From a virus (Duplodnaviria > Caudoviricetes): a stretch of DNA of 37,882 nucleotides. Positions within the stretch are counted from its first letter, which is position 1. Each line of letters starts with the position of its first letter. The translations under genes and the position numbers were made by a program. The stretch lies in IMG/VR virus record IMGVR_UViG_3300043437_000215, positions 1-37,882 of that record. One strand, given 5' to 3'. Below, piece by piece: positions 8,362-37,882 of the stretch. The notes under the pieces were generated by a model. It was not told the origin of the DNA. It did not search any database and worked only from the letters and a program-made list of their open reading frames with translations.

Positions 8362-8598
8362 TTATTTGTTTCTGTTTTGCAAATTAATGTTATTCTTGTG
8401 CAGAAGCATCAGCCAGTTCAATGCCTTAATCGTATAGGTTCGATGCACTGATGTGCCATGCGCAGCTGTTGTCAGATACCTCGCAAGCGATTGGTGAGCC
8501 TGTTTCGTTGAGGTATAAGTTAGCGGCCCATCCACAAGCGTTGCCTCATCTGGAAGCATCTCGGTCATGTAGTGAATTATCTTGTCGTACTTAGTCAT
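8362..8598 (-). CDS. Hypothetical protein (78 aa)
   Basis: Start overlaps the end of the VRR-NUC gene. Confidence 0.6.
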   Translation of the reverse strand: MTKYDKIIHYMTEMLPDEATLVDGPLTYTSTKQAHQSLARYLTTAAHGTSVHRTYTIKALNWLMLLHKNNINLQNRNK

Positions 8599-8917
8599 GG
8601 TTTATGATGTTTAAGAATTCTTCTTCATTGCGCACTATGTGGTACTCATGGCCGAGCGATCGGCATATCTTTTCAAATCGCTTTTGCTCTTCCGACTGCT
8701 TGCCGGTGTCCGTCTTCCATTCAATCCAGCATGTCCGACCTTCCGGCTTCAGGTAGCACATATCGGCAACGCCAGGCACAACTCCCATAGCTTTGTTCAT
8801 TGCGCCCTTGATGCCGTTCACGCTGTTGTTATTGATGGCGAAAACTCTTCCACGCAAGTCGGGGCGGGCGTTCCATAGGTTTGTGAATGCTTTGGATTGG
8901 GCTTTTACTTCGCTCAT
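8591..8917 (-). CDS. VRR-NUC domain nuclease (putative Holliday junction resolvase)
   Basis: 'GV..GVAD', 'IEWK..TGKQS.EQ' PD-(D/E)xK VRR-NUC pattern. Likely start ATG at 8917. Confidence 0.85.
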   Translation of the reverse strand: MSEVKAQSKAFTNLWNARPDLRGRVFAINNNSVNGIKGAMNKAMGVVPGVADMCYLKPEGRTCWIEWKTDTGKQSEEQKRFEKICRSLGHEYHIVRNEEEFLNIINHD

Positions 8918-8920
8918 AAT

Positions 8921-9209
8921 TGTTGCCACTTAGTAAGGTGGCAACAATGTTTTTGACTGCCAAAAACGCTTGTGTCGCAATCGCTGCAATGCTTACAGCG
9001 ATTTGTTGCCACTTGGGCCAAAAAAAGCCCTGTTAGTATAATATGTGTGTGTGTGTGCATGTGTGTGTGTGTGTATATATAAATATTGTTAAGGTATGAA
9101 AGTAAGTGGCAACAGTGGCAACAAATGGCTATAAGGCTTGGTATAATTGGGCTTAGCGTGTTGCCACTTGCTTTTTTGAAGTGGCAACAAAGTGGCAACA
9201 GTGGCAACA
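8921..9209. repeat. Putative replication origin: nine GTGGCAACA repeats in both orientations around a (TG)n/(TA)n tract
   Basis: Direct copies at 8938, 9106, 9115, 9181, 9192, 9201; inverted copies at 8921, 9004, 9159; TG/TA dinucleotide run at ~9038-9080. Non-coding gap directly after the primase gene. Confidence 0.75.
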
Positions 9210-11335: not shown

Positions 11336-12801
11336 AGTTCTGTGAGTTTACTGTTTACGAGGTTTCGATGGAACTGGTCAAAGCGTTTGCCTTTTTCGCG
11401 GCACCAGAGCCTCGCAAGTTCGTGAATTTCTTTTTCGATTTGTGCGTGGTGCTGATGTGTTGGATTGTGAAATATGCGCACAGCCTTGTTGAAAACTTGC
11501 TCAACTATCACATAGAGAGAACGATAATCCTTATAATGTGCATTTGATTCGATTAGTTTTTTTACATCAATAGCCTTTGATACTTGGATGAACTTCTCGA
11601 TGGCTTCGTCCTTTGGCTTGATTACTGGGAAGACATGGCCGCAAGGAAATAACATCCCGAGATATTGCGCATCGCATATCTTCTTTGCGGTGTGATGCAG
11701 AGCTCCGCACTTTGGGCACTGCCTAACTGGAGCTACTCCATTGCCTGGCTTCTTCGGGTTGTGGAAGATATCGCTCCAGTTGCGAGGCGAGGACCAGAGG
11801 CCATGTGTCATGCAGTTCCCTCCAAGGTCTATGATGGTAAATGCGAGCTTGACATTATGCGGCCTTGCACCGCGCCCGCACATCTGAAGCCATAAGGGCA
11901 TTGATGCTGTGGCCTTGTTTACTATTACGGTCTCGATGTCGGGCTGGTCGAATCCGGTAGTGGCGATGCCGATGTTGTTGAGAATTGCATCGGGTGTGTT
12001 GGCAAACCATTGCAGCACCTCAGCCCGATCAGGCGAGCCAGCATCGAGATGTCGCGAGTTGAATCCAGCGGCTTGGAATGCTGTATTGACGGCCATCGAG
12101 TGCTCGACATTGCAATTGAAGATTATGGTCTTGCGGCCAAGTGAGTGTGCCTTGTAGGCGTTAACTGTTGTCTCGATGTACTTAGGTGCTTTGAATGCAG
12201 CTGCCATCTGTGCTGCATCGAACTCGCCAGCTTTCATCTTTAGCTTTGCGCGGTCTACAATCTGAGCGGCTGAGTAGGTCAGCTCTGGGCATAAGTAGCC
12301 TTGTTCGATTAGGTCGGGGATATCGATGCCGCACACGATGTCATCGAAGTAGTTGCGCAAGGGATTGGTCTTGCGAGCTGCCAATGGCGTTGCTGTGAAG
12401 CCAATGATATACTGAGAGGTGAAGTGCTCGATGACCTTTGTGAAATTGCCGATATGCACCTCATCGACAATGACCAACCCGATGTTAGTGAACTTGTCCA
12501 GCCGCTTGTAAGCAGTCTCAACCATTGCCACATAAACGCGAGCATGCGGGATTGACTTCATCCCAGCGGTTACGGGCTGCGATGGTATGCGAATCGCTTT
12601 AGTGGCCTGTGCGAGTAGTTCTTCACGATGCACAAGGATTAGGATGTCCGTGCTGTTGCGTGCTGTGAAGCGGTCACATATCGCAGAAAAGCATACGGTT
12701 TTGCCTCCACCAGTTGCCAGCTGCGCGACAACCTTGCGATTGCTGCGCAGGCTCGCTGCGATGTTATTGATGAAAGTATCTTGGTATGGCCTGAGTTTCA
12801 T
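11233..12801 (-). CDS. SF2 DEAD/DEAH-like helicase (RadD/YejH-like) with C-terminal Zn ribbon
   Basis: LRPYQ, LATGGGKT, DEVH, TATP, QMCGRGAR, CPKCG. Confidence 0.92.
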   Translation of the reverse strand: MKLRPYQDTFINNIAASLRSNRKVVAQLATGGGKTVCFSAICDRFTARNSTDILILVHREELLAQATKAIRIPSQPVTAGMKSIPHARVYVAMVETAYKRLDKFTNIGLVIVDEVHIGNFTKVIEHFTSQYIIGFTATPLAARKTNPLRNYFDDIVCGIDIPDLIEQGYLCPELTYSAAQIVDRAKLKMKAGEFDAAQMAAAFKAPKYIETTVNAYKAHSLGRKTIIFNCNVEHSMAVNTAFQAAGFNSRHLDAGSPDRAEVLQWFANTPDAILNNIGIATTGFDQPDIETVIVNKATASMPLWLQMCGRGARPHNVKLAFTIIDLGGNCMTHGLWSSPRNWSDIFHNPKKPGNGVAPVRQCPKCGALHHTAKKICDAQYLGMLFPCGHVFPVIKPKDEAIEKFIQVSKAIDVKKLIESNAHYKDYRSLYVIVEQVFNKAVRIFHNPTHQHHAQIEKEIHELARLWCREKGKRFDQFHRNLVNSKLTELCSSHTTKTSMTVKTLTSNSAPFWKESEQANGRT

Positions 12802-13912
12802 ACTGCTCGATTGCTTTGAATATTTGGTAAACGACTTGAGGCACTATGGCGTTTCCTCCGGCTTTGATGGATTCGTTTCGCCACTTAGAAAAGGTAATTC
12901 CGTCCAGTCCGGAGGAAAGCCCATCATTTCGAGAACAAATTGGGGATTGAGTTGGGAATTGTAACCAACCTGGTTGTGAATTACCATTGCTAAATCTTCT
13001 TGTCTGCCCTTGTCTTTTCTGTTCTTCCAATACGCTTCTTTGTCTGAGTGTTTTGTCAAAGAAGTTGTCGGTGTCGGCAACATTGTTACCCATTTGGCTA
13101 TGTGTTCCTCCAGATTCCCTTTGTTCCTGTTGGCTAAACTTTCGGAGTTCAGGTCGCATCCATTCACCTGGTTGGCTCTCGGTGTCGGCAATAACCCCAT
13201 CGCCATTGCTCGGCAAAGGGTTACACTGTGCATCGAGCCCTCCTTCACTTGACTGCTCTTCATCGTTGCCGTTGCGTTGGTTGAGTCCATTGCTGTCGGG
13301 GTTGGGAGTAGGCCGTTCATCGCTAAGTCCTTCAATGGTGCGCTTCCGTTGTGTCCTTGGTTGCTTATTATTCTTCCCGATTGCGTTATTTGCCGAGGAG
13401 GGTTCTGCATCATGTCCATTGCCTGAGGCGTAGGCAACAAACCAGACTCTGTCTCTTCGGTGCGGTGCGTTGACGGCACAAGCTGGAAGTACATACGGTT
13501 GTACTTCGTACCCTTCAGCTTCCAAATCAGCCTGCACCTCGTGGAAGACCAACCCTCCTGACCAATTAACAAGCCCGAAAACGTTTTCGCCCACAACCCA
13601 ACGCGGCCGAATTTCTCGAATCGCTCTAAGCATCTCCGGCCAGAGGTGTCGCTCATCTTCTTTTCCAAGTCGCTTTCCGGCCATTGAGTATGGCTGGCAA
13701 GGGAATCCCCCTGTGAGGATGTCAATTCTGCCTCTGTGAATAGTGAAATCTGTTTTGGTAATGTCTTCATAACTGATTGCATTTGGAAAGTGATATTTTA
13801 ATACTTTTTGCCCGAATGAATTCCACTCGCAATGGAATATGTTCTCCCATCCCATCCATTCGGCAGCGAGGTCAAAGCCGCCAATTCCGCTAAATAGTGA
13901 TCCGTGTGTCAT
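12764..13912 (-). CDS. DNA (cytosine-5)-methyltransferase, large (alpha-like) polypeptide lacking motif IX
   Basis: Motif I SLFSGIGG, IV GGFPCQPYS, VI ENV, VIII HRRDRVW, X GNAIVPQV. The central region is low-complexity. Confidence 0.9.
   Translation of the reverse strand: MTHGSLFSGIGGFDLAAEWMGWENIFHCEWNSFGQKVLKYHFPNAISYEDITKTDFTIHRGRIDILTGGFPCQPYSMAGKRLGKEDERHLWPEMLRAIREIRPRWVVGENVFGLVNWSGGLVFHEVQADLEAEGYEVQPYVLPACAVNAPHRRDRVWFVAYASGNGHDAEPSSANNAIGKNNKQPRTQRKRTIEGLSDERPTPNPDSNGLNQRNGNDEEQSSEGGLDAQCNPLPSNGDGVIADTESQPGEWMRPELRKFSQQEQRESGGTHSQMGNNVADTDNFFDKTLRQRSVLEEQKRQGQTRRFSNGNSQPGWLQFPTQSPICSRNDGLSSGLDGITFSKWRNESIKAGGNAIVPQVVYQIFKAIEQYETQAIPRYFHQ
12844..13782 (-). CDS. Nested out-of-frame C5-methyltransferase small (beta-like) polypeptide with motif IX and four LPTP units
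   Basis: 312 stop-free codons in the +1 frame inside the MTase gene; ends with LNPQFVLEMMGFPPDWT (motif IX-like). Confidence 0.75.
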   Translation of the reverse strand: MQSVMKTLPKQISLFTEAELTSSQGDSLASHTQWPESDLEKKMSDTSGRRCLERFEKFGRVGLWAKTFSGLLIGQEGWSSTRCRLIWKLKGTKYNRMYFQLVPSTHRTEETESGLLPTPQAMDMMQNPPRQITQSGRIISNQGHNGSAPLKDLAMNGLLPTPTAMDSTNATATMKSSQVKEGSMHSVTLCRAMAMGLLPTPRANQVNGCDLNSESLANRNKGNLEEHIAKWVTMLPTPTTSLTKHSDKEAYWKNRKDKGRQEDLAMVIHNQVGYNSQLNPQFVLEMMGFPPDWTELPFLSGETNPSKPEETP

Positions 13913-16678: not shown

Positions 16679-16990
16679 TTAAATTGAGGTTAAAAGTGCT
16701 TGAGTTGATTGTTCGTGAAGGTATTCAGTGACGAATGCAAACTGGTTGTGGAATTCTTCCATGTTGCAAGGGTCATAGATGCGCTTCTCAGGTGCCACGC
16801 CGTGCTCCATCGAGCGGTGATACTGGCGTGCGAGGTTAGCGGCTTGAGAGTCGCATCGGGTGTAAAGGCCCTTGATGCATCCGTCATTTACAACCATGAC
16901 CATAGTGCCGGTGAGGTGGTTGTAGTGAAAGAATTCAGTGCCCTTCCAATTCTTGAAGGTTGTCGCTGGTGATAGTTCTGGTGTGTTCAT
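16679..16990 (-). CDS. Hypothetical early protein (103 aa)
   Basis: First gene after the promoter at 17014-17021. Confidence 0.7.
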   Translation of the reverse strand: MNTPELSPATTFKNWKGTEFFHYNHLTGTMVMVVNDGCIKGLYTRCDSQAANLARQYHRSMEHGVAPEKRIYDPCNMEEFHNQFAFVTEYLHEQSTQALLTSI

Positions 16991-17013
16991 GATTTTTCGT
17001 TGTTTTGTTGAGG

Positions 17014-17021
17014 CAAATGTA
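17014..17021 (-). promoter_or_regulatory. Bacteroidota promoter (TTG-19 nt-TACATTTG) for the early/replication genes
   Basis: mRNA-sense ttg-tgaattcaaaataaggatt-tacatttg in an AT-rich gap. Confidence 0.7.
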
Positions 17022-17109
17022 AATCCTTATTTTGAATTCACAATACTAAAACAAAGAAAAAAGTAAACCACCAGCGCGAAAAATCTCAAGTGCTTAATAA
17101 TCAACGCAA

Positions 17110-17754
17110 TTATTTTGCGCGACCAATTGCGAATCCTGTAATGCCACCAAGTGCGAAAGCGAATGCGCGTGTCTCATACCACTTCTTCGGCGGCTCGGCC
17201 ACGATTATGTTATTCATGCCGGTGACATGCACGTATGGATTGTCGATGCCAAGCCGAACCACCTTATCGCGCTTACGCGATAGGAAGCCTTTGCGCAGCG
17301 TATCTCCGATTGCAACGGTATAACTTACAGGAATAATAATTGAGTCCAACTGAAGCCTCCCTGCACGGCTTATTTGCCCACCTATCTCAAGCCATTTACC
17401 AGGCCGATGGAAGTAACGCGGAAGGCGAAGGTGCGGGAAGCTATCAATGTATACAGTCTCGCCAAGCTCTACTTGCGTCACCACCTTGGTGCGGGTTTGG
17501 TACCTGATCACCACCTCAGGCTCTCTCAGCTCCAAGGCTCGCAGCTTGGTGCCTGCCGCTGCCAGCTGCACTCCTTGGCTGTGCATCTTGCTGCTATCTC
17601 TCGCAATGCGCACAGCGTACTCATTGTTCAGCGAATCGAGGTACATCGCATTGCTTTCAGCCTCGCCCAATGCCCCGCACGTGCGCATCAAAAGCAGCAA
17701 AAGAAATAGGCATATTGCCAACAGGCTTAACGTGCTGATGTTGCTTTGCTGCAT
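17110..17754 (-). CDS. Spanin-like membrane protein
   Basis: N-terminal hydrophobic segment ending MRTC, coiled-coil then beta-rich region, C-terminal KKWY plus hydrophobic tail; last gene of the lysis cassette. Confidence 0.55.
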   Translation of the reverse strand: MQQSNISTLSLLAICLFLLLLLMRTCGALGEAESNAMYLDSLNNEYAVRIARDSSKMHSQGVQLAAAGTKLRALELREPEVVIRYQTRTKVVTQVELGETVYIDSFPHLRLPRYFHRPGKWLEIGGQISRAGRLQLDSIIIPVSYTVAIGDTLRKGFLSRKRDKVVRLGIDNPYVHVTGMNNIIVAEPPKKWYETRAFAFALGGITGFAIGRAK

Positions 17755-17921
17755 TTTATAAGTTCGTTTAATCGTTTGAGGTACGTGCTCTTATCGCGCA
17801 GCTCGTTGAGCAATATATCGCCCGCCACCTTTATCGGCATCGACTTCTCGGCTATGTACACAGCCAGCACCTTCACAAGTCGCTCATCGCATTCGCAATC
17901 GGTGGCCGGTAGGTTGCTCAT
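17727..17921 (-). CDS. Hypothetical protein (64 aa) coupled to the PAS-HisKA gene
   Basis: ATGA overlap with the PAS-HisKA stop; contains CEC. Confidence 0.6.
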   Translation of the reverse strand: MSNLPATDCECDERLVKVLAVYIAEKSMPIKVAGDILLNELRDKSTYLKRLNELIKCSKATSAR

Positions 17922-18484
17922 AGTTGCCGTGTTGCTTTCTTTACCAATAGCCGAATCACATTGTCGAGCTTTTCAACGCTGTCTTCGAGCATCTTCATAA
18001 CGCCATCGCGCTCCTGATCGGTTGCCCAAGTATGCTCGTTTACCATCTTCACCAAGCCACCGATTGATGTCAACGGCTGACGAAGCTCGTGCGATAGAGT
18101 GAACCTGAACTCTTCGAGCAGCATCTTTTGCCGCTCGTATTCGTGGCTGCTTATGGAAGTAACATCGACAAGTTGAATGCCGATGAAGTGCAGCATATCG
18201 ACAATGGCGTAAACATTCCACATATTGAAGCGCTCCGAGCTTATCTTCTGCTTCGTCTTAGCGTATACCCGAATCGGGTCGGGCGATTTGCTTTGCGCCT
18301 TGCGAATGGCTGCAAGCAGTTCATCGCGGTCGCTATCTTGCGCTGCGATGTCGAGGATATTGCCGGGCTTTATGTGGCTGGAGTATTCGCGAAATAGGTC
18401 ATTCGTGGTGACGATGTTGCCATCCTTATCTGTAATCACATAGAAGAGGTCAATTGATGACTCAAGGATGTGCAGCGATGCCAT
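17918..18484 (-). CDS. PAS-like + HisKA (DHp) protein lacking the HATPase domain (188 aa)
   Basis: PAS-like start 'LESSIDLFYVITDKDGNIVTTNDLF', 'DVT' linker, H-box 'LSHELRQPLTSIGGLV', second DHp helix 'SVEKLDNVIRLLV', then stop. Likely start ATG at 18484. Confidence 0.85.
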   Translation of the reverse strand: MASLHILESSIDLFYVITDKDGNIVTTNDLFREYSSHIKPGNILDIAAQDSDRDELLAAIRKAQSKSPDPIRVYAKTKQKISSERFNMWNVYAIVDMLHFIGIQLVDVTSISSHEYERQKMLLEEFRFTLSHELRQPLTSIGGLVKMVNEHTWATDQERDGVMKMLEDSVEKLDNVIRLLVKKATRQL

Positions 18485-18488
18485 GCTG

Positions 18489-18496
18489 CAAAGATA
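18489..18496 (-). promoter_or_regulatory. Bacteroidota -7 box (TATCTTTG) 4 nt upstream of the PAS-HisKA ATG
   Basis: taa-cg-tatctttg-cagc-ATG in the 14-nt gap after the upstream stop. Confidence 0.65.
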
Positions 18497-18498
18497 CG

Positions 18499-18891
18499 TT
18501 AAACCGAACGTAAATCCGCAATTAATGAACGCCATGCTGGCACACATCCGAGCGCATACTTGATGGTAAGCAGCATCGTGAATGTAAGCACAATTCCGTT
18601 TGCGAGTATATCGTAATTCATAGGCGTTGGCATTTCCGGCTCGTTTCTTACAGCGTGAGTTTTCGGGATGTAATACGTGGCGGCTGGGTACAAAGATACA
18701 TCACACGGCTGAATCGTGTCGAATGCCGTTAGCACTTTCGGCTTTGCCGGCTGTGCCATCACTGCCTGAAAGGATTCACGATTCGCTTGGGCGAATGAGG
18801 TGTCCACATCGGGCGCATGCCACTGCATCTCATCGACATTGACCTTGCTGTGGCGCACTACTTTGATGGTATCTCTTCTAATCTGTTGCAT
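18499..18891 (-). CDS. Membrane protein with C-terminal TM helix (130 aa)
   Basis: ILANGIVLTFTMLLTIKYALG; start overlaps the holin end. Confidence 0.65.
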   Translation of the reverse strand: MQQIRRDTIKVVRHSKVNVDEMQWHAPDVDTSFAQANRESFQAVMAQPAKPKVLTAFDTIQPCDVSLYPAATYYIPKTHAVRNEPEMPTPMNYDILANGIVLTFTMLLTIKYALGCVPAWRSLIADLRSV

Positions 18892-19081
18892 CGCTTTTGG
18901 CTTTTGGGATATATCCTGCGGCTATGAGTGCTGCAATGATGGCGGTTAATGTCTCGGCTGTTATCACTTTGAAGATTAGCAAAAAGATGGACACCAGAAT
19001 CATAAGCGAACCGATTGTGCCGCGCCAGTGCTTCACAATCACATCGAGTATTCGCCTTTGCTTGGTAGCCCTTTTTCGCAT
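18878..19081 (-). CDS. Putative holin (2 TM)
   Basis: Basic N-terminus, 'HWRGTIG' then two hydrophobic helices and a charged C-terminus; directly after the endolysin. Confidence 0.7.
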   Translation of the reverse strand: MRKRATKQRRILDVIVKHWRGTIGSLMILVSIFLLIFKVITAETLTAIIAALIAAGYIPKAKSDATD

Positions 19082-19126: not shown

Positions 19127-19585
19127 CTAAATATTACACAATGAGAAATAGAGATTCGCCTCTTCGCGGCGGCGGTTGGTCAGCCCTGCGAGCACCTTCC
19201 CGCCCGCCTTGTTCCACTTCAGGAACTCATCGAGAATGCTCGGGTCGGCTGAGTTGGCTTTGGCCTTCTTTAGCAGCGTTGACTTAACCAAAGCGCCAGT
19301 TCCTACGTTGTAGGCGAAGCACACAAGCGCATCGAACTGGCATTGGTTGAGGTTAGGTAGGTGTTTATTGACGGCTGCCTCGAATGGGTCAAGCGTAGAT
19401 AGTAGCAATTGCGTTGCTTCCTTTTCGCCTGTGAGCTTTTCGCCCAGGATTACCTTCTTGCCATTCGGATAGCGTGTCGAGCCGTAGCCTATGGTCGGCA
19501 CTCCGGCGGGGCATAGGTAGCTTGAGAGCCTCAATCCCTCGTACTTCTTAATCAGATTAAGCCCGAGAATTGAGGTGCTGCGCAT
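19127..19585 (-). CDS. Endolysin, GH24 phage lysozyme
   Basis: E-x8-C-x5-T triad (EGLRLSSYLCPAGVPT), TIGYG, FDALV.FAYNVG, GL..RR..E. Confidence 0.95.
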   Translation of the reverse strand: MRSTSILGLNLIKKYEGLRLSSYLCPAGVPTIGYGSTRYPNGKKVILGEKLTGEKEATQLLLSTLDPFEAAVNKHLPNLNQCQFDALVCFAYNVGTGALVKSTLLKKAKANSADPSILDEFLKWNKAGGKVLAGLTNRRREEANLYFSLCNI

Positions 19586-31049: not shown

Positions 31050-31129
31050 TACGCAGTTGCTTTAGTGGTTGGTTGGTTTATGATGTGCGAGCCGCATGAC
31101 TTAGAGCGGCAAAAGGTAAGTGCTTTCAT
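31049..31129 (-). CDS. 26-aa coupling microprotein
   Basis: MKALTFCRSKSCGSHIINQPTTKATA*; ATGA overlap upstream and TAATG overlap with the portal ATG. Confidence 0.55.
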   Translation of the reverse strand: MKALTFCRSKSCGSHIINQPTTKATA

Positions 31130-31692
31130 CGTTTCTGAATTAGCGAAAGGCCACGCCCCTCGGATGTGTTTAACGTAATCACATTGTAGTTATAATGCGC
31201 TGCGTACTCCATCAGCTTCTTAACATCAGCAATATGAATCGTGTCATGGTAGGCAACGATGCCACCCTTCGCAAGTACGCGCTCAACCTCTTTGAACTCG
31301 GGCAATATATTCTCCCAGCTATGGTCTCCATCGACAAAGATAAAGTCGAAGTGATTTGCCGGATAGCCTTTGAGCAATGATATCGATTCACCGAGCACAA
31401 AATCGACATCTGTTCCGAATGAATTGAGGTCATGCTTCAGATAATTGTTAATGTCGATGCCTGTGTATTTGCCACCGTATGGCAAGGCTTCAATCATCTT
31501 AACGGCTGTCTCGCCTTCGAACACGCCAATCTCGAGCACGTTCGCTGAATTGTTCATCTTGATAAGTGAGCCAATGAACTGACATACATCGGGCTCGCTG
31601 TTCCATCCGTGGCGTGCCACTTCGTTGAATGTCGCAGTTGTTACAATCTTTTTAGGTCTGCCTCTCTTTGGCTTATCGCTTAGGGTCTGCAT
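31126..31692 (-). CDS. Class I SAM-dependent methyltransferase (Methyltransf_24-like)
   Basis: VLEIGVFEG, FDFIFVDGDH, GGIVAYHD; N-terminal KRGRPKK. Confidence 0.88.
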   Translation of the reverse strand: MQTLSDKPKRGRPKKIVTTATFNEVARHGWNSEPDVCQFIGSLIKMNNSANVLEIGVFEGETAVKMIEALPYGGKYTGIDINNYLKHDLNSFGTDVDFVLGESISLLKGYPANHFDFIFVDGDHSWENILPEFKEVERVLAKGGIVAYHDTIHIADVKKLMEYAAHYNYNVITLNTSEGRGLSLIQKR

Positions 31693-32593
31693 GCTTATGG
31701 TCGGTTATTCTGTGAATGAAGTATTTGTGCTGGATGCCGTCCTGTTGCATCCATGCTTTGAGTTTTCTGTCGAGCCATTCGATGTAGAAGCTCGGCGTGA
31801 ATCCTTTGCCACCATAGTAGCTCATTAGGTAGAACCTTTCTTCGATTTGCGCATAGCTGAACTCACGATTCATCTGAAAGCAGATAGCATCAATCTCATA
31901 CGGCTTGAAATTATTCTTGCCGAATGATACATTGAAGTAAAGCTCATCGGGTTGCCCGCCGCCCCACTTCATGCGGAGCTTGTTAATCGGCATCGGATTG
32001 TTGAGGTAAAGGTCGGCAGCTGTGCGGTAAATCGCTTCGGCTTCATCGCACTTCTCAATGAACTGGATGCTGCTATTAATCGCATAAATCTTGTCGCTCT
32101 TAGCAAGGCCGAAGTGCTGCCATAGTTGATCGGCCCACGCCCATTGCATCTCCTTGAAATCGCGGCCTTTGTCGATGGTATGCTCACCCACAACTCGCGT
32201 GGCATACTTTGCATCGTTCGCAATTAGCTGGTCAATCAATGGCTGCAAGTCCTTAAGGCATACAGCATCGACATCGAGGTATAGGTTGTAATGAAACGGC
32301 AAGTAATCGAAGAGCAATACCTTCGCCTTGCCCGGGTCAAGTTTCTTATTCGTGTAAATGTGCTGTTCAGGCAAGTCAACATATATATCGATTTGGTTTG
32401 TCAAGTCATGGCAATAGTACAACGCCCTGTCCTTGCTATCGCTGATTAGCGCAATCTGCAAATCCTTGTTGAATCGCTTAATCGAATACGCTAAGTTATA
32501 AGCAGCCCAGTAATACTGAGGCTTACCAAAAGCAACAAGCACCACCCCGCTTGAGGTAGGCTTGCCGCTTTGATTTGTTGGTTGAATATCCAT
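31673..32593 (-). CDS. Putative GT-A fold glycosyltransferase
   Basis: 'A..LAYSIK', 'K..L.DY.PF...LYLDVD' DxD motif, 'INSS..F', 'PDELYFN'. Confidence 0.7.
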   Translation of the reverse strand: MDIQPTNQSGKPTSSGVVLVAFGKPQYYWAAYNLAYSIKRFNKDLQIALISDSKDRALYYCHDLTNQIDIYVDLPEQHIYTNKKLDPGKAKVLLFDYLPFHYNLYLDVDAVCLKDLQPLIDQLIANDAKYATRVVGEHTIDKGRDFKEMQWAWADQLWQHFGLAKSDKIYAINSSIQFIEKCDEAEAIYRTAADLYLNNPMPINKLRMKWGGGQPDELYFNVSFGKNNFKPYEIDAICFQMNREFSYAQIEERFYLMSYYGGKGFTPSFYIEWLDRKLKAWMQQDGIQHKYFIHRITDHKHADPKR

Positions 32594-33204: not shown

Positions 33205-33212
33205 CAAATATA
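33205..33212 (-). promoter_or_regulatory. Bacteroidota -7 box (TATATTTG)
   Basis: TAnnTTTG just after the upstream stop, ~70 nt before the tube gene ATG. Confidence 0.6.
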
Positions 33213-34891: not shown

Positions 34892-36960
34892 GGAAGTAGT
34901 TTGTTTGAACGTAGCTCGAATTGCGCGGCCTTGCGCATCACTGACTCAATCTGAATGTTTTTAATGTAGGTGTCAATCACTGCGATGCTGTCATCCCTGC
35001 GACCGAGTTGTATCGGCTTGGATGTCTCCGATGTAATGGCGTTAATCTCTGCCATCGTGAGCGGGCGCTTGAACTTGTAGAGGTAGGCTTGCACATCATC
35101 GATGTTCACTGGGTCAAGTGTTTGTGGTGTGAATGGTTCGCCAATAATTGAAAAGAATGAGAATGCCGATGGTAGCGTAGTATTTTGAAATCCGCTTCCG
35201 AATCGTAAGAATCGTTGAATAACATTAGGCAATGGGGCTGTGGCGGTTGCTGATATGCCAATGTCAACTGCGATTAAATCACCCGGCTCGCAAATGAATA
35301 CCTCGTTCGTTATTGTATACCAAGCTGGTTGACCGGGCACAGCTAAATCACTGCCAGTGATAAATCTTGTTTCTAATAAATTCAGACCGGCATCAAATCG
35401 CTTAATCATTAGCTTAACTTGCCTGCCAGCTGCAAATGCAATCGGCAAAAATGTTACAGGGTCTAAGTATTCATCTAATACAAGCCCGGCATTAACCGTG
35501 TATATGCCCGGATTTGCAACGCTGTAATACTCATACGTGCCCGGCACAGGCTGCGTGAAATTACTTGGATTTATAACCGGGTCAAGCCAAATGAAGTAAT
35601 GAGCCAACAGCCCTGAAAGAGTATTCTGAGTCGGAGCATTAACAACAGAGAATTGATTTACAATTTGGTTTGCAAGCGTATTATCAAACCTTAATGTTCC
35701 GGTTGCAGTTGACGGATTGAAGCCCTCAAAAAATGATTGAAGGGAATTCGGATATCCGCTCAGCCAATTAGCAGATACAACCTCGTTTCTAAATGGTCCA
35801 TTATAAATGCTATTGCCAACGCCGTAAGGGTCGTATCCTCGAGCTCTTGCTGTATTGACTCCATAGAACCCATCCCAGTTGCTCATAATAACAACGCCGT
35901 TTGTTTCATATCCGGTATTGTTAAAAACAACAATGTCCTGAATAAGGTTAGTGTCAAATATTATTTCGCTTGTTTTCAAGTCAAGCACATTCGATGTATT
36001 GCACTCACCTAAAAATCCAAATGTTTCAGTTCTGAATCCTCTGAATGGTGTCTGCGTAAATTCGCAAAGCGTGTCACCGTTATCGCATTGACCTACTTCT
36101 AAGAACAATTCATTGCCGAAGTCAGCCGCTTGGTATAGCCTGCTTGTATCGAACTTCATCTCAATCTCTGGCTGATCGTAAAGGTTAGCCGATGCGCCCG
36201 ATTGCTGGAAGTATGCAATAGGCTCGATGCGTAGCAATGGCCTTCCATTAGCTTGCTTCTCGAATCCCATGCCGAGGTTTAGCTTTGACCGCATTGCTGC
36301 GTATAGGCTTTCAAAGTCTGCAAGTATTTCAACATTTGATTTGATTCGAATCGATTGCCCATTGGTATAGAATGGCACATCGTTCTGCGGATATGTAGCG
36401 GCAAAGTAATTAGAATCAAAGTCGATTAAACCATCGCTCATGCAGTTTACCAAATGAGCAAAAGTATCATAAATCGTATATCCGTATGCTGGGTCAGTAT
36501 AGAATGAAACGCCGGGATTATAAACATAAAGCGGCACAGCTGTTGGCGGCACTATCGGTACGCCGTTCTTTGATGTTGTAAGGCGCAGCGAGAATGGTAT
36601 AGCCTTGTTGTTGTTTATCTTGGTGCTGAATGTTTCATCATAGAGCTTAGTCTTTACTTGGCACCTATCGAGCAGAAAGTTCGATTCGGTTACAATGATG
36701 TAGCCATCGACCAACTTCTCCCAGGTACCCGAGCTGCAAAGGTATTGCACGGTCACGCGCACAAGCTCGCAGTAACCAGATGTTGCAAGTTTATTGTAAA
36801 GATACCCGAACACATCGCCGCCAAAGATTAACTCATTGTCGAACGATACAATGCGGGCTCCGATGTTGCTGTCCTCGCTAATGTTGATGCCGAAGTCCTC
36901 AGGGTTAAGCGGCTGGCCTCGGTCGAGATTGTCGATAAGGAATTTTATTTCTACTGCCAT
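34888..36960 (-). CDS. Tail tip/baseplate-region structural protein, allele B (690 aa)
   Basis: First gene after the tape measure; 'LRIEP..YF' hub-like segment; aromatic- and Asn-rich. Confidence 0.75.
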   Translation of the reverse strand: MAVEIKFLIDNLDRGQPLNPEDFGINISEDSNIGARIVSFDNELIFGGDVFGYLYNKLATSGYCELVRVTVQYLCSSGTWEKLVDGYIIVTESNFLLDRCQVKTKLYDETFSTKINNNKAIPFSLRLTTSKNGVPIVPPTAVPLYVYNPGVSFYTDPAYGYTIYDTFAHLVNCMSDGLIDFDSNYFAATYPQNDVPFYTNGQSIRIKSNVEILADFESLYAAMRSKLNLGMGFEKQANGRPLLRIEPIAYFQQSGASANLYDQPEIEMKFDTSRLYQAADFGNELFLEVGQCDNGDTLCEFTQTPFRGFRTETFGFLGECNTSNVLDLKTSEIIFDTNLIQDIVVFNNTGYETNGVVIMSNWDGFYGVNTARARGYDPYGVGNSIYNGPFRNEVVSANWLSGYPNSLQSFFEGFNPSTATGTLRFDNTLANQIVNQFSVVNAPTQNTLSGLLAHYFIWLDPVINPSNFTQPVPGTYEYYSVANPGIYTVNAGLVLDEYLDPVTFLPIAFAAGRQVKLMIKRFDAGLNLLETRFITGSDLAVPGQPAWYTITNEVFICEPGDLIAVDIGISATATAPLPNVIQRFLRFGSGFQNTTLPSAFSFFSIIGEPFTPQTLDPVNIDDVQAYLYKFKRPLTMAEINAITSETSKPIQLGRRDDSIAVIDTYIKNIQIESVMRKAAQFELRSNKLLP

Positions 36961-37882
36961 GAATATCGAGAATCCCCTCCGTTAATGTTTACAATCATTT
37001 GCTTCCCTGCCATTGTCTTGTTCAGCCTGTCGAGCTTGCGCTCCATCGACTTGCTATTCAGCGAAGCGTTAACCGTTATGCCATCGCGCTTGTTATTCAT
37101 CGCATAGCTGAGTATGGCAGGGCGCACGTAACGCTCATCGATTAATCGCTTGAATGCTGCGCTCGATGTGTTAATCGCATCCAGTTCGCGGCGGTTGCGC
37201 ATCACTGAGTTCTTATTCACCACGTACTCGCCGCGCTCGGCTTCAATCAACGTTCCGCCTGCCTCATGGCTGCGCCCGCCTACCATACCACCCTTCTTGA
37301 ACTTAGGGATGGGCGTTGCTGCAATGATGGCAATCTGAGCCAAGCCTGAAGCAAGGGCGATGGCTTTCTCAACTACCGTGACAGCCTTGGCAACAGCGGC
37401 AGCCGTGCCAATCGTTGCATTAAATATAGCCGCAGCCTTTTCGGCTTTCGCTTGCCGTGTCTTTTCGGCTGCAACCTTTTGCTCTGTTCTTATGCGTAAG
37501 GCCTCGAGCTTGCGTTGCTTTTGAGCTTCGCTTATTGTGCTGCCCTCGATAGCCGCCTTCTCGGCTTCATTTGCCGCATTGATTTCCTCGATTCGCTTTT
37601 GCGATTGAATGCCTTGCAGCTCAATGATGCTTCCAAGTGTATCAGCAACCGCCTGCGCAATCTCAAGCGCTTGGTCGATTGCTTCATCGCGTGACTTCTT
37701 ACGCTCATCGCGGATGGCTTGCTCGGTCTCGGCGTTGATGAGTTTTATCTCGCTAGCATTTTCTTTAGCATCTTCAATTCGCTTTTTAGATTCGAGTTGT
37801 ATAATCTCAATCCTTCTTTCGAGCGATGTGCCCTCTGCAATCTCTAATGTCTTAAGCGCATTTATCTGAGCATCGATGCCAG
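35250..37882. repeat. Terminal redundancy, copy B
   Basis: Aligns with 1-2633 without net indel. Confidence 0.97.
36951..37882 (-). CDS. Tape measure protein C-terminal part (start lies beyond the right edge)
   Basis: Near-identical to 1702-2633; a few amino acid changes (EFVV/EYVV, MSNK/MNNK, KAM/KSM, YTW/YSW). Confidence 0.9.
   Translation of the reverse strand, partial: GIDAQINALKTLEIAEGTSLERRIEIIQLESKKRIEDAKENASEIKLINAETEQAIRDERKKSRDEAIDQALEIAQAVADTLGSIIELQGIQSQKRIEEINAANEAEKAAIEGSTISEAQKQRKLEALRIRTEQKVAAEKTRQAKAEKAAAIFNATIGTAAAVAKAVTVVEKAIALASGLAQIAIIAATPIPKFKKGGMVGGRSHEAGGTLIEAERGEYVVNKNSVMRNRRELDAINTSSAAFKRLIDERYVRPAILSYAMNNKRDGITVNASLNSKSMERKLDRLNKTMAGKQMIVNINGGDSRYSWQ

Follow-up and report, generated by a model that had tools for sequence, protein, structure and literature searches.

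Organization of the lysis cassette

Why would a phage keep, in the middle of its lysis genes, a PAS sensor joined to the His-bearing DHp domain of a histidine kinase, with no kinase domain attached? The window, by which we mean the whole stretch of 37,882 nucleotides analysed here, is a phage record rated 100% complete by CheckV. Its two ends (1-2633 and 35250-37882) form a 2.6 kb duplication with 94% identity between the copies, and the genome is thus ∼35.2 kb long; the differences between them are of the kind expected from strain variants or a variable tail region. Elsewhere in the window, a C5 DNA methylase ORF (382 residues, 12764-13912, minus strand) overlaps a 312-residue ORF in another frame (12844-13782, minus strand), possibly a frameshifted or overprinted methylase, and an O-methyltransferase-like gene (Pfam) together with a 306-residue gene, at 31126-32593, adjoins the portal gene. 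The cassette itself consists of the following features, in the order of transcription.

19127-19585, minus strand: endolysin (phage lysozyme; Pfam Phage_lysozyme, 135 bits)
18878-19081, minus strand: 67-residue holin-like membrane protein, named from its position and one strong hydrophobic segment
18499-18891, minus strand: 130-residue protein bearing a C-terminal hydrophobic helix; its place behind the holin-like gene is conserved, but it does not always adjoin the PAS-DHp gene
18489-18496, minus strand: promoter-like TATCTTTG, 4 nt before the PAS-DHp ATG at 18484
17918-18484, minus strand: 188-residue PAS-DHp protein (PAS ∼1-110, helical linker, DHp ∼120-188, no CA domain)
18089-18091, minus strand: His132 codon of the PAS-DHp gene, in the H-box SHELRQPLT
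17727-17921, minus strand: 64-residue three-helix protein, ATGA overlap with the PAS-DHp stop, no family or fold match
17110-17754, minus strand: 214-residue spanin-like lipoprotein with an N-terminal hydrophobic stretch; Cys26 and a glycine-rich C-terminal segment are conserved
17104-17120, minus strand: terminator-like hairpin where the spanin-like gene ends, from a consensus scan that gave 7 sites against 3.7 expected

This is the gene order that an earlier sequence-only reading had described, with the holin and spanin labels given by position and topology. The holin-like protein has no family match and owes its name to its place beside the endolysin and to its hydrophobicity. Unimolecular spanins combine a lipoprotein signal carrying a Cys with a C-terminal membrane segment; the 214-residue protein, also without a family match, has a hydrophobic N-terminal segment and keeps Cys26 in at least 90% of 17 sequences, and its C-terminal segment falls under the hydropathy threshold.

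Three scans of viral contigs (best 80 of 109 matches, 43 of 43, and best 80 of 121) gave 203 loci. With the window included, the whole PAS-DHp ORF is present in 201 of 204, the other three being cut by contig ends. Using profiles built from the same loci, the holin-like gene, membrane protein, and lysozyme were found in 178/178, the spanin-like gene in 176/176, and the 64-residue gene in 191/191 with enough flanking sequence. The spanin-like gene lies directly 3′ of the module in every locus examined. Searches led instead by the spanin-like protein, covering the best 80 of 273 and the best 80 of 316 matches and overlapping with the earlier contigs, found the PAS-DHp gene in 76/76 new loci and in 79 of 80 loci, respectively, the lone exception being cut by a contig end. 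A search of viral contigs with P0130 returned no match, and no RNA holder was among the entries listed.

More distant relatives show which parts of this arrangement are fixed. In L223 and L224 (43 to 45% identity), the membrane protein gene and the PAS-DHp gene are separated by other genes, and the small and spanin-like genes still follow; the 130-residue protein was dropped as a fixed partner because of these intervening genes. L224 is 85% identical to the window in lysozyme and 88% in holin but only 45% in PAS-DHp and 25% in the small protein. Since the module is exchanged while the holin and lysozyme genes stay nearly identical, a specific contact with the holin becomes less likely. A clade at ∼35% identity (H-box HKVRKP, three metagenome loci) retains the order endolysin, holin-like protein, membrane protein, PAS-DHp, a 65- to 79-residue gene, and spanin-like gene; two of its three small proteins match the 64-residue profile weakly and the third does not. 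The endolysin of this clade is either an M15 peptidase or a lysozyme. An M15 peptidase replaces the lysozyme in L301 (2049-2534, checked with Pfam) and L302 (1964-2446), and in L223 it is encoded in addition to the lysozyme in the same cassette (1958-2440).

Two further features of these cassettes were noticed. About 40 loci of one clade (L134, L139, L151, L158, L185, L194, and L196 among them), and also the distant L303 (5369-5515), have an extra gene of 48 to 53 residues between lysozyme and holin, a candidate antiholin or lysis accessory gene. Unlike the fixed module, the slot right behind the spanin-like gene (16990-17110 in the window, and its counterpart in relatives) varies across loci and is occupied by many different small genes.

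A promoter-like element before the PAS-DHp gene

The octamer TATCTTTG (18496-18489) fits TAnnTTTG, the Bacteroidota −7 promoter consensus. The gene had been credited with its own promoter, and in the window the element does stand 4 nt before the ATG. Across 197 loci, however, this spacing recurs in just 78, and the examples listed all come from the window's own clade; the window has 22 copies of the octamer on its minus strand and 12 on its plus strand. The claim holds for some lineages only. In two of the three clades, the motif is absent, and the PAS-DHp gene and the membrane gene upstream of it overlap or touch. A similar element precedes the small gene in L204, L223, L224, L301, and L302, and expressing the two genes separately may hence be of importance.

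TAnnTTTG also occurs on the minus strand of the window at 33212, 28233, 26768, 25506, 20102, 17021, 8360, and 7570, shortly before several genes and in some cases 3 to 5 nt from the ATG. This distribution suggests host-type promoters and near-leaderless messages across the genome.

A PAS-DHp protein with neither kinase domain nor receiver in the phage

The domain reading of the 188-residue protein was borne out by several methods. Pfam HisKA matches it at 29.7 bits against a cutoff of 26.9, and the PAS and DHp domains of ThkA (3a0r) align with residues 6 to 181 with an E value of 2e-7. The AlphaFold model (pLDDT 76) shows a PAS domain followed by two long helices, and its Foldseek matches are PAS and LOV-kinase structures. 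The chain stops at the second DHp helix of the model, with no residues beyond the DHp. None of the Pfam PAS models matches the protein; the N-terminal PAS sensor is supported by the ThkA alignment, the fold model, Foldseek, and the alignment with host homologues. Hydropathy reveals no membrane segment in either the PAS-DHp protein or the 64-residue protein.

Of the elements of a class I (HisKA) sensor histidine kinase, the protein has the DHp/HisKA domain with its H-box His and lacks both a CA domain, in the chain or in a neighboring gene, and a nearby cognate response regulator. Both elements of the "HisKA, no HATPase" proteins are found, namely an N-terminal PAS/GAF sensor and a C-terminal HisKA with a conserved His and no HATPase. 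Domain searches also upheld the view that the phage supplies neither missing part from elsewhere: HATPase_c (PF02518) and Response_reg (PF00072) are each absent from the window genome and 29 related records (0/30), 26 of which are at least 90% complete; controls were positive in 14 and 12 of 14 genomes. Any phosphotransfer partner or donor must therefore belong to the host. A split kinase was rejected, a CA gene being found neither nearby nor elsewhere. The 64-residue protein had by eye some likeness to a CA N-box helix, an idea that was dropped because its model has three helices and no CA sheet.

Conservation and selection

A protein search gave 169 matches, the best 120 of which were aligned with the query (n = 121). 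His132, Glu133, Arg135, Pro137, and Thr139 are invariant in all 121 sequences, Gln136 (H+4) is kept in 119 and Gly143 in 116, and the DHp helices, like the C-terminal tail, vary little. The motif is HELRQPL or HEIRQPL in 200 of 201 loci, and close phage members thus have a Glu at H+1. Among 30 diverse members, only Asn28 and His132 are invariant, which leaves His132 as the sole invariant residue of the DHp (30/30); H+1 is nonacidic in 11 of the 30, and H+4 is Thr or Asn in 1 and Lys, Arg, Ala, or Leu in many of the distant ones. His37, in the PAS pocket, is kept in at least 90% of the diverse members.

The length of the protein is fixed at 188 to 189 residues. By the method of Nei and Gojobori, with at most 40 distinct sequences per clade, dN/dS is 0.055, 0.083, and 0.090 for the PAS-DHp gene and 0.069 to 0.103 for the 64-residue gene; the lysozyme values (0.099 to 0.114) lie above those of the PAS-DHp gene. 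The gene is conserved and under strong purifying selection, not decaying. Sporadic occurrence or decay, loss of the His, or loss of the neighboring genes would each have told against a function, and none was seen.

The 64-residue protein and its predicted complex

The 64-residue protein has no Pfam match and is modelled as entirely helical, with three helices. Fold searches, a weak test for a helical bundle, returned nothing in Foldseek at an E value of 0.001 or below, a best Z of 6.8 in VIA, and a best score of 0.79 in Atlas. The gene was not found among the 401 Bacteroidota genomes searched. That this protein might be the binding partner was not singled out in the sequence-only reading. Complex prediction with two PAS-DHp chains and one 64-residue chain gave a score of 0.62, whereas none of three controls exceeded 0.00; at least 84% of the contacts agreed between runs, and the pLDDT of the partner was at least 78. 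Of 157 solved complexes, 116 reach the mark applied to this score, as do 2 of 215 mismatched pairs; these counts are only a rough guide for this task. The prediction supports binding between the two proteins.

The predicted site comprises residues 72, 74, 84, 86, and 88 of the PAS domain and the hinge (105 to 116) of both copies; in PAS kinases, it is the hinge between PAS and DHp that relays the signal to the DHp. Conservation is higher in the interface columns than elsewhere, at 0.81 versus 0.73 in the PAS domain and 0.72 versus 0.49 in the 64-residue protein. The predicted contact Val108-Leu15 is unchanged in 176/176 loci and Asp107-Val18 in 175. Tyr74-Met28 is kept in 170 loci and becomes His-Trp in L223 and L224, a single event among kin and not proof of coevolution. 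Across 21 representative loci, the pairwise identities of the PAS-DHp and 64-residue proteins correlate with each other (Spearman, 0.83) better than either does with the four lysis genes (0.41 to 0.56). By Pearson correlation over 21 loci, however, the small protein follows the spanin-like gene about equally well (0.93 versus 0.91), and the correlated identities of the pair partly reflect shared ancestry. Judged from these sequence comparisons, the unit is the PAS-DHp protein together with the 64-residue protein.

Host and chromosomal relatives

The phage group that carries the module is widespread. The 20 listed best matches of the primase are all to Bacteroidota phages, at 32 to 36% identity, and these matches and the promoter motifs make Bacteroidota the likely hosts. 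Isolated phages yielded no match to the PAS-DHp protein (50,697 records) or to the spanin-like protein, and a scan of GTDB found no prophage copy of the module. Two close GTDB matches, on contigs of 4.7 and 2.7 kb that carry only phage genes and fall in unrelated bins, were set aside as likely misbinned. No integrase was recognized among the 43 window proteins scanned. The 69-kb relative L301 encodes a serine recombinase (8461-9201, minus strand), and some carriers may on this evidence integrate.

Bacteroidota had been said to encode similar proteins that end in HisKA, and the chromosomal searches agree. Nine of 401 Bacteroidota genomes have matches at E values of 1e-14 or below, and 8 of the 10 matched proteins end after the DHp. 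Among 118 cluster representatives, 110 have a DHp match and 26 of these are family members by a motif rule; 61 of the other 84 end within 60 residues past the DHp (about seven being short family fragments) and 23 have longer tails. L378, a 209-residue chromosomal PAS-HisKA protein without a CA domain, aligns with the phage protein over its full length (172 columns, probability 98.7) and adjoins a lone receiver gene. Its homologue L389 adjoins a gene that is receiver-like by motif, and L390 does not. Since a lone receiver adjoins just two of the eight kinase-less host genes, the link to host receivers is only suggestive. Many PAS/GAF proteins on Bacteroidota chromosomes end in a HisKA without an ATPase domain and share the motif QSHxVRxPLAxIxGL (L206, L208, L211, L378-L381, L383, and L385-L390); no function for this family was found in the literature searched. 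It is likely that the phage captured an architecture that was already kinase-less and set the 64-residue gene beside it.

Possible functions of the module

In HisKA proteins, an acid at H+1 is needed for kinase activity and a Thr or Asn at H+4 for phosphatase activity, and an Asn-to-Gln change at H+4 abolished the phosphatase activity of CrdS, according to PMC3510030. The phage protein has Gln136 where the phosphatase motif E/DxxT/N calls for Thr or Asn. With the His fixed and H+1 and H+4 free to vary, phosphoryl acceptance or transfer fits the family better than kinase or canonical phosphatase activity. The reading that we favor, at a probability of roughly 45%, is that the module acts on host receivers late in infection, as a switchable tap or sink based on His phosphotransfer. 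The invariant His would take phosphoryl groups from host receiver domains or pass them between such domains, the donor probably being a host single-domain receiver. The 64-residue protein, a predicted clamp on the hinge, would switch the tap on or off, the hinge presumably controlling the DHp as it does in PAS kinases. As lysis proteins build up, a host response, to envelope damage for instance, might in this way be damped or rerouted. A decoy, a phosphate sink, and a phosphatase had all been proposed from the sequence; a sink or transfer role fits best, and the canonical phosphatase is weakened by the near absence of Thr or Asn at H+4 (1/30).

Some points count against a tap or sink. The His could be kept for structural reasons, the Glu at H+1 of the close phage members would be compatible as well with a host CA domain phosphorylating the protein in trans, and a gene that jams the host is more usually early, whereas the PAS-DHp gene sits in the late lysis block.

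Control of lysis itself is a possible though rather doubtful alternative. Here, the PAS-DHp protein would listen to the state of a host phosphorelay or to a small ligand and hold or release the 64-residue protein, so that the phage reads the phosphorylation state of its host and lysis comes earlier or later. The position of the module between the holin and membrane protein genes and the spanin-like gene, kept from 98% down to ∼35% identity and with either lysozyme or M15 peptidase, speaks for such a timer, as do the junction with the upstream membrane gene in the two clades that have no promoter motif, the predicted complex, and the element just before the small gene in several lineages. Against it, in L224 the module has changed freely while the holin stayed the same, both proteins are devoid of membrane segments, and accessory genes are common in lysis blocks. 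If it were true, this would be a new mode of lysis control with an input from the state of the host, and it would give the kinase-less HisKA class its first function.

A noncatalytic decoy is unlikely. Mixed DHp dimers with a host kinase or kinase-less HisKA protein, or the occupation of a receiver, with the 64-residue protein as a restraint, would agree with the strong conservation of the DHp helices and tail, with the many similar DHp proteins of the host, and with the variable H+1 and H+4; a purely steric decoy, however, would not need the His, the one DHp residue that the 30 diverse members all share. A sensor-gated phosphatase for a host response regulator is likewise improbable. FixL has a Gln at H+4 and is nevertheless a phosphatase, and nearly all close homologues keep Gln136 (119/121). 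A phosphatase role is raised as a possibility in PMC5847659 for the archaeal "HisKA, no HATPase" proteins, but the CrdS substitution (PMC3510030) and the Lys, Arg, Ala, or Leu at H+4 of many distant members speak against it. That the gene is a passenger or the decaying remnant of a captured kinase would agree with the lack of carriers among the 50,697 isolated-phage records, and it is already largely refuted by the low dN/dS (0.055 to 0.09, against 0.10 to 0.11 for lysozyme), the fixed length, the lack of any loss in the best-matching spanin-led loci (76/76 and 79/80, the exception being a contig end), and host relatives that already lack the CA domain.

Comparison with known systems

The literature searched, largely open-access main texts, contained no description of the phage PAS-DHp and 64-residue module, in keeping with the earlier statement that no lysis cassette with a PAS-HisKA module was known. 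A PADLOC search for defense systems gave a best E value of 0.019.

ChpT and Spo0B are kinase-dead DHp proteins with an essential His through which phosphoryl groups pass from one receiver to another; both retain a degenerate CA-like domain and lack a PAS input. The phage protein resembles them in its invariant His within a kinase-dead DHp and differs in having a PAS domain and no CA remnant, and the 64-residue protein is all-helical. Sda, KipI, SafA, and PII are small proteins that bind a histidine kinase and set its state. None of them was matched by the family and fold searches with the 64-residue protein, a weak test for a helical bundle, and the 64-residue protein is, unlike them, predicted to sit on the PAS sheet and hinge and not on the DHp.

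The AgrC of phage phiCDHM1 is likewise a phage-borne, histidine kinase-related protein encoded beside lysis genes with no response regulator from the phage, as far as the available part of its description goes (PMC3901668). It carries HATPase_c, and its gene follows the lysis genes on the opposite strand, together with agrB and agrD, whereas the PAS-DHp gene lies inside the cassette and encodes the complementary half to the HATPase_c-bearing protein.

The closest relatives are the kinase-less PAS/GAF-HisKA proteins of Bacteroidota (L378, L389, L206, and L211), which share full-length homology, the same type of H-box, a chain that stops after the DHp, and variable H+1 and H+4 positions; some of these host genes lie beside lone receivers, whereas the phage has the 64-residue gene and no receiver. 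Nonenzymatic "HisKA, no HATPase" proteins have been described for archaeal chromosomes (Galperin et al. 2018, PMC5847659), with the same sensor, C-terminal HisKA, conserved His, and missing ATPase domain, and the available part of that paper gives them proposed functions only, as phosphoacceptors or in phosphotransfer or phosphatase reactions. Compared with these, the phage form is compacted, belongs to a lysis cassette, and has a dedicated small protein as its companion. A class that has only proposed functions in that text (PMC5847659) is common in Bacteroidota genomes, and a phage lineage keeps a minimal soluble member of it under stronger selection than its endolysin. This points to a route by which a lytic phage could enter host two-component signaling with no kinase or regulator of its own. 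The module is a phage form of the kinase-less HisKA class with a predicted dedicated partner, and its two small proteins make the role of that class testable.
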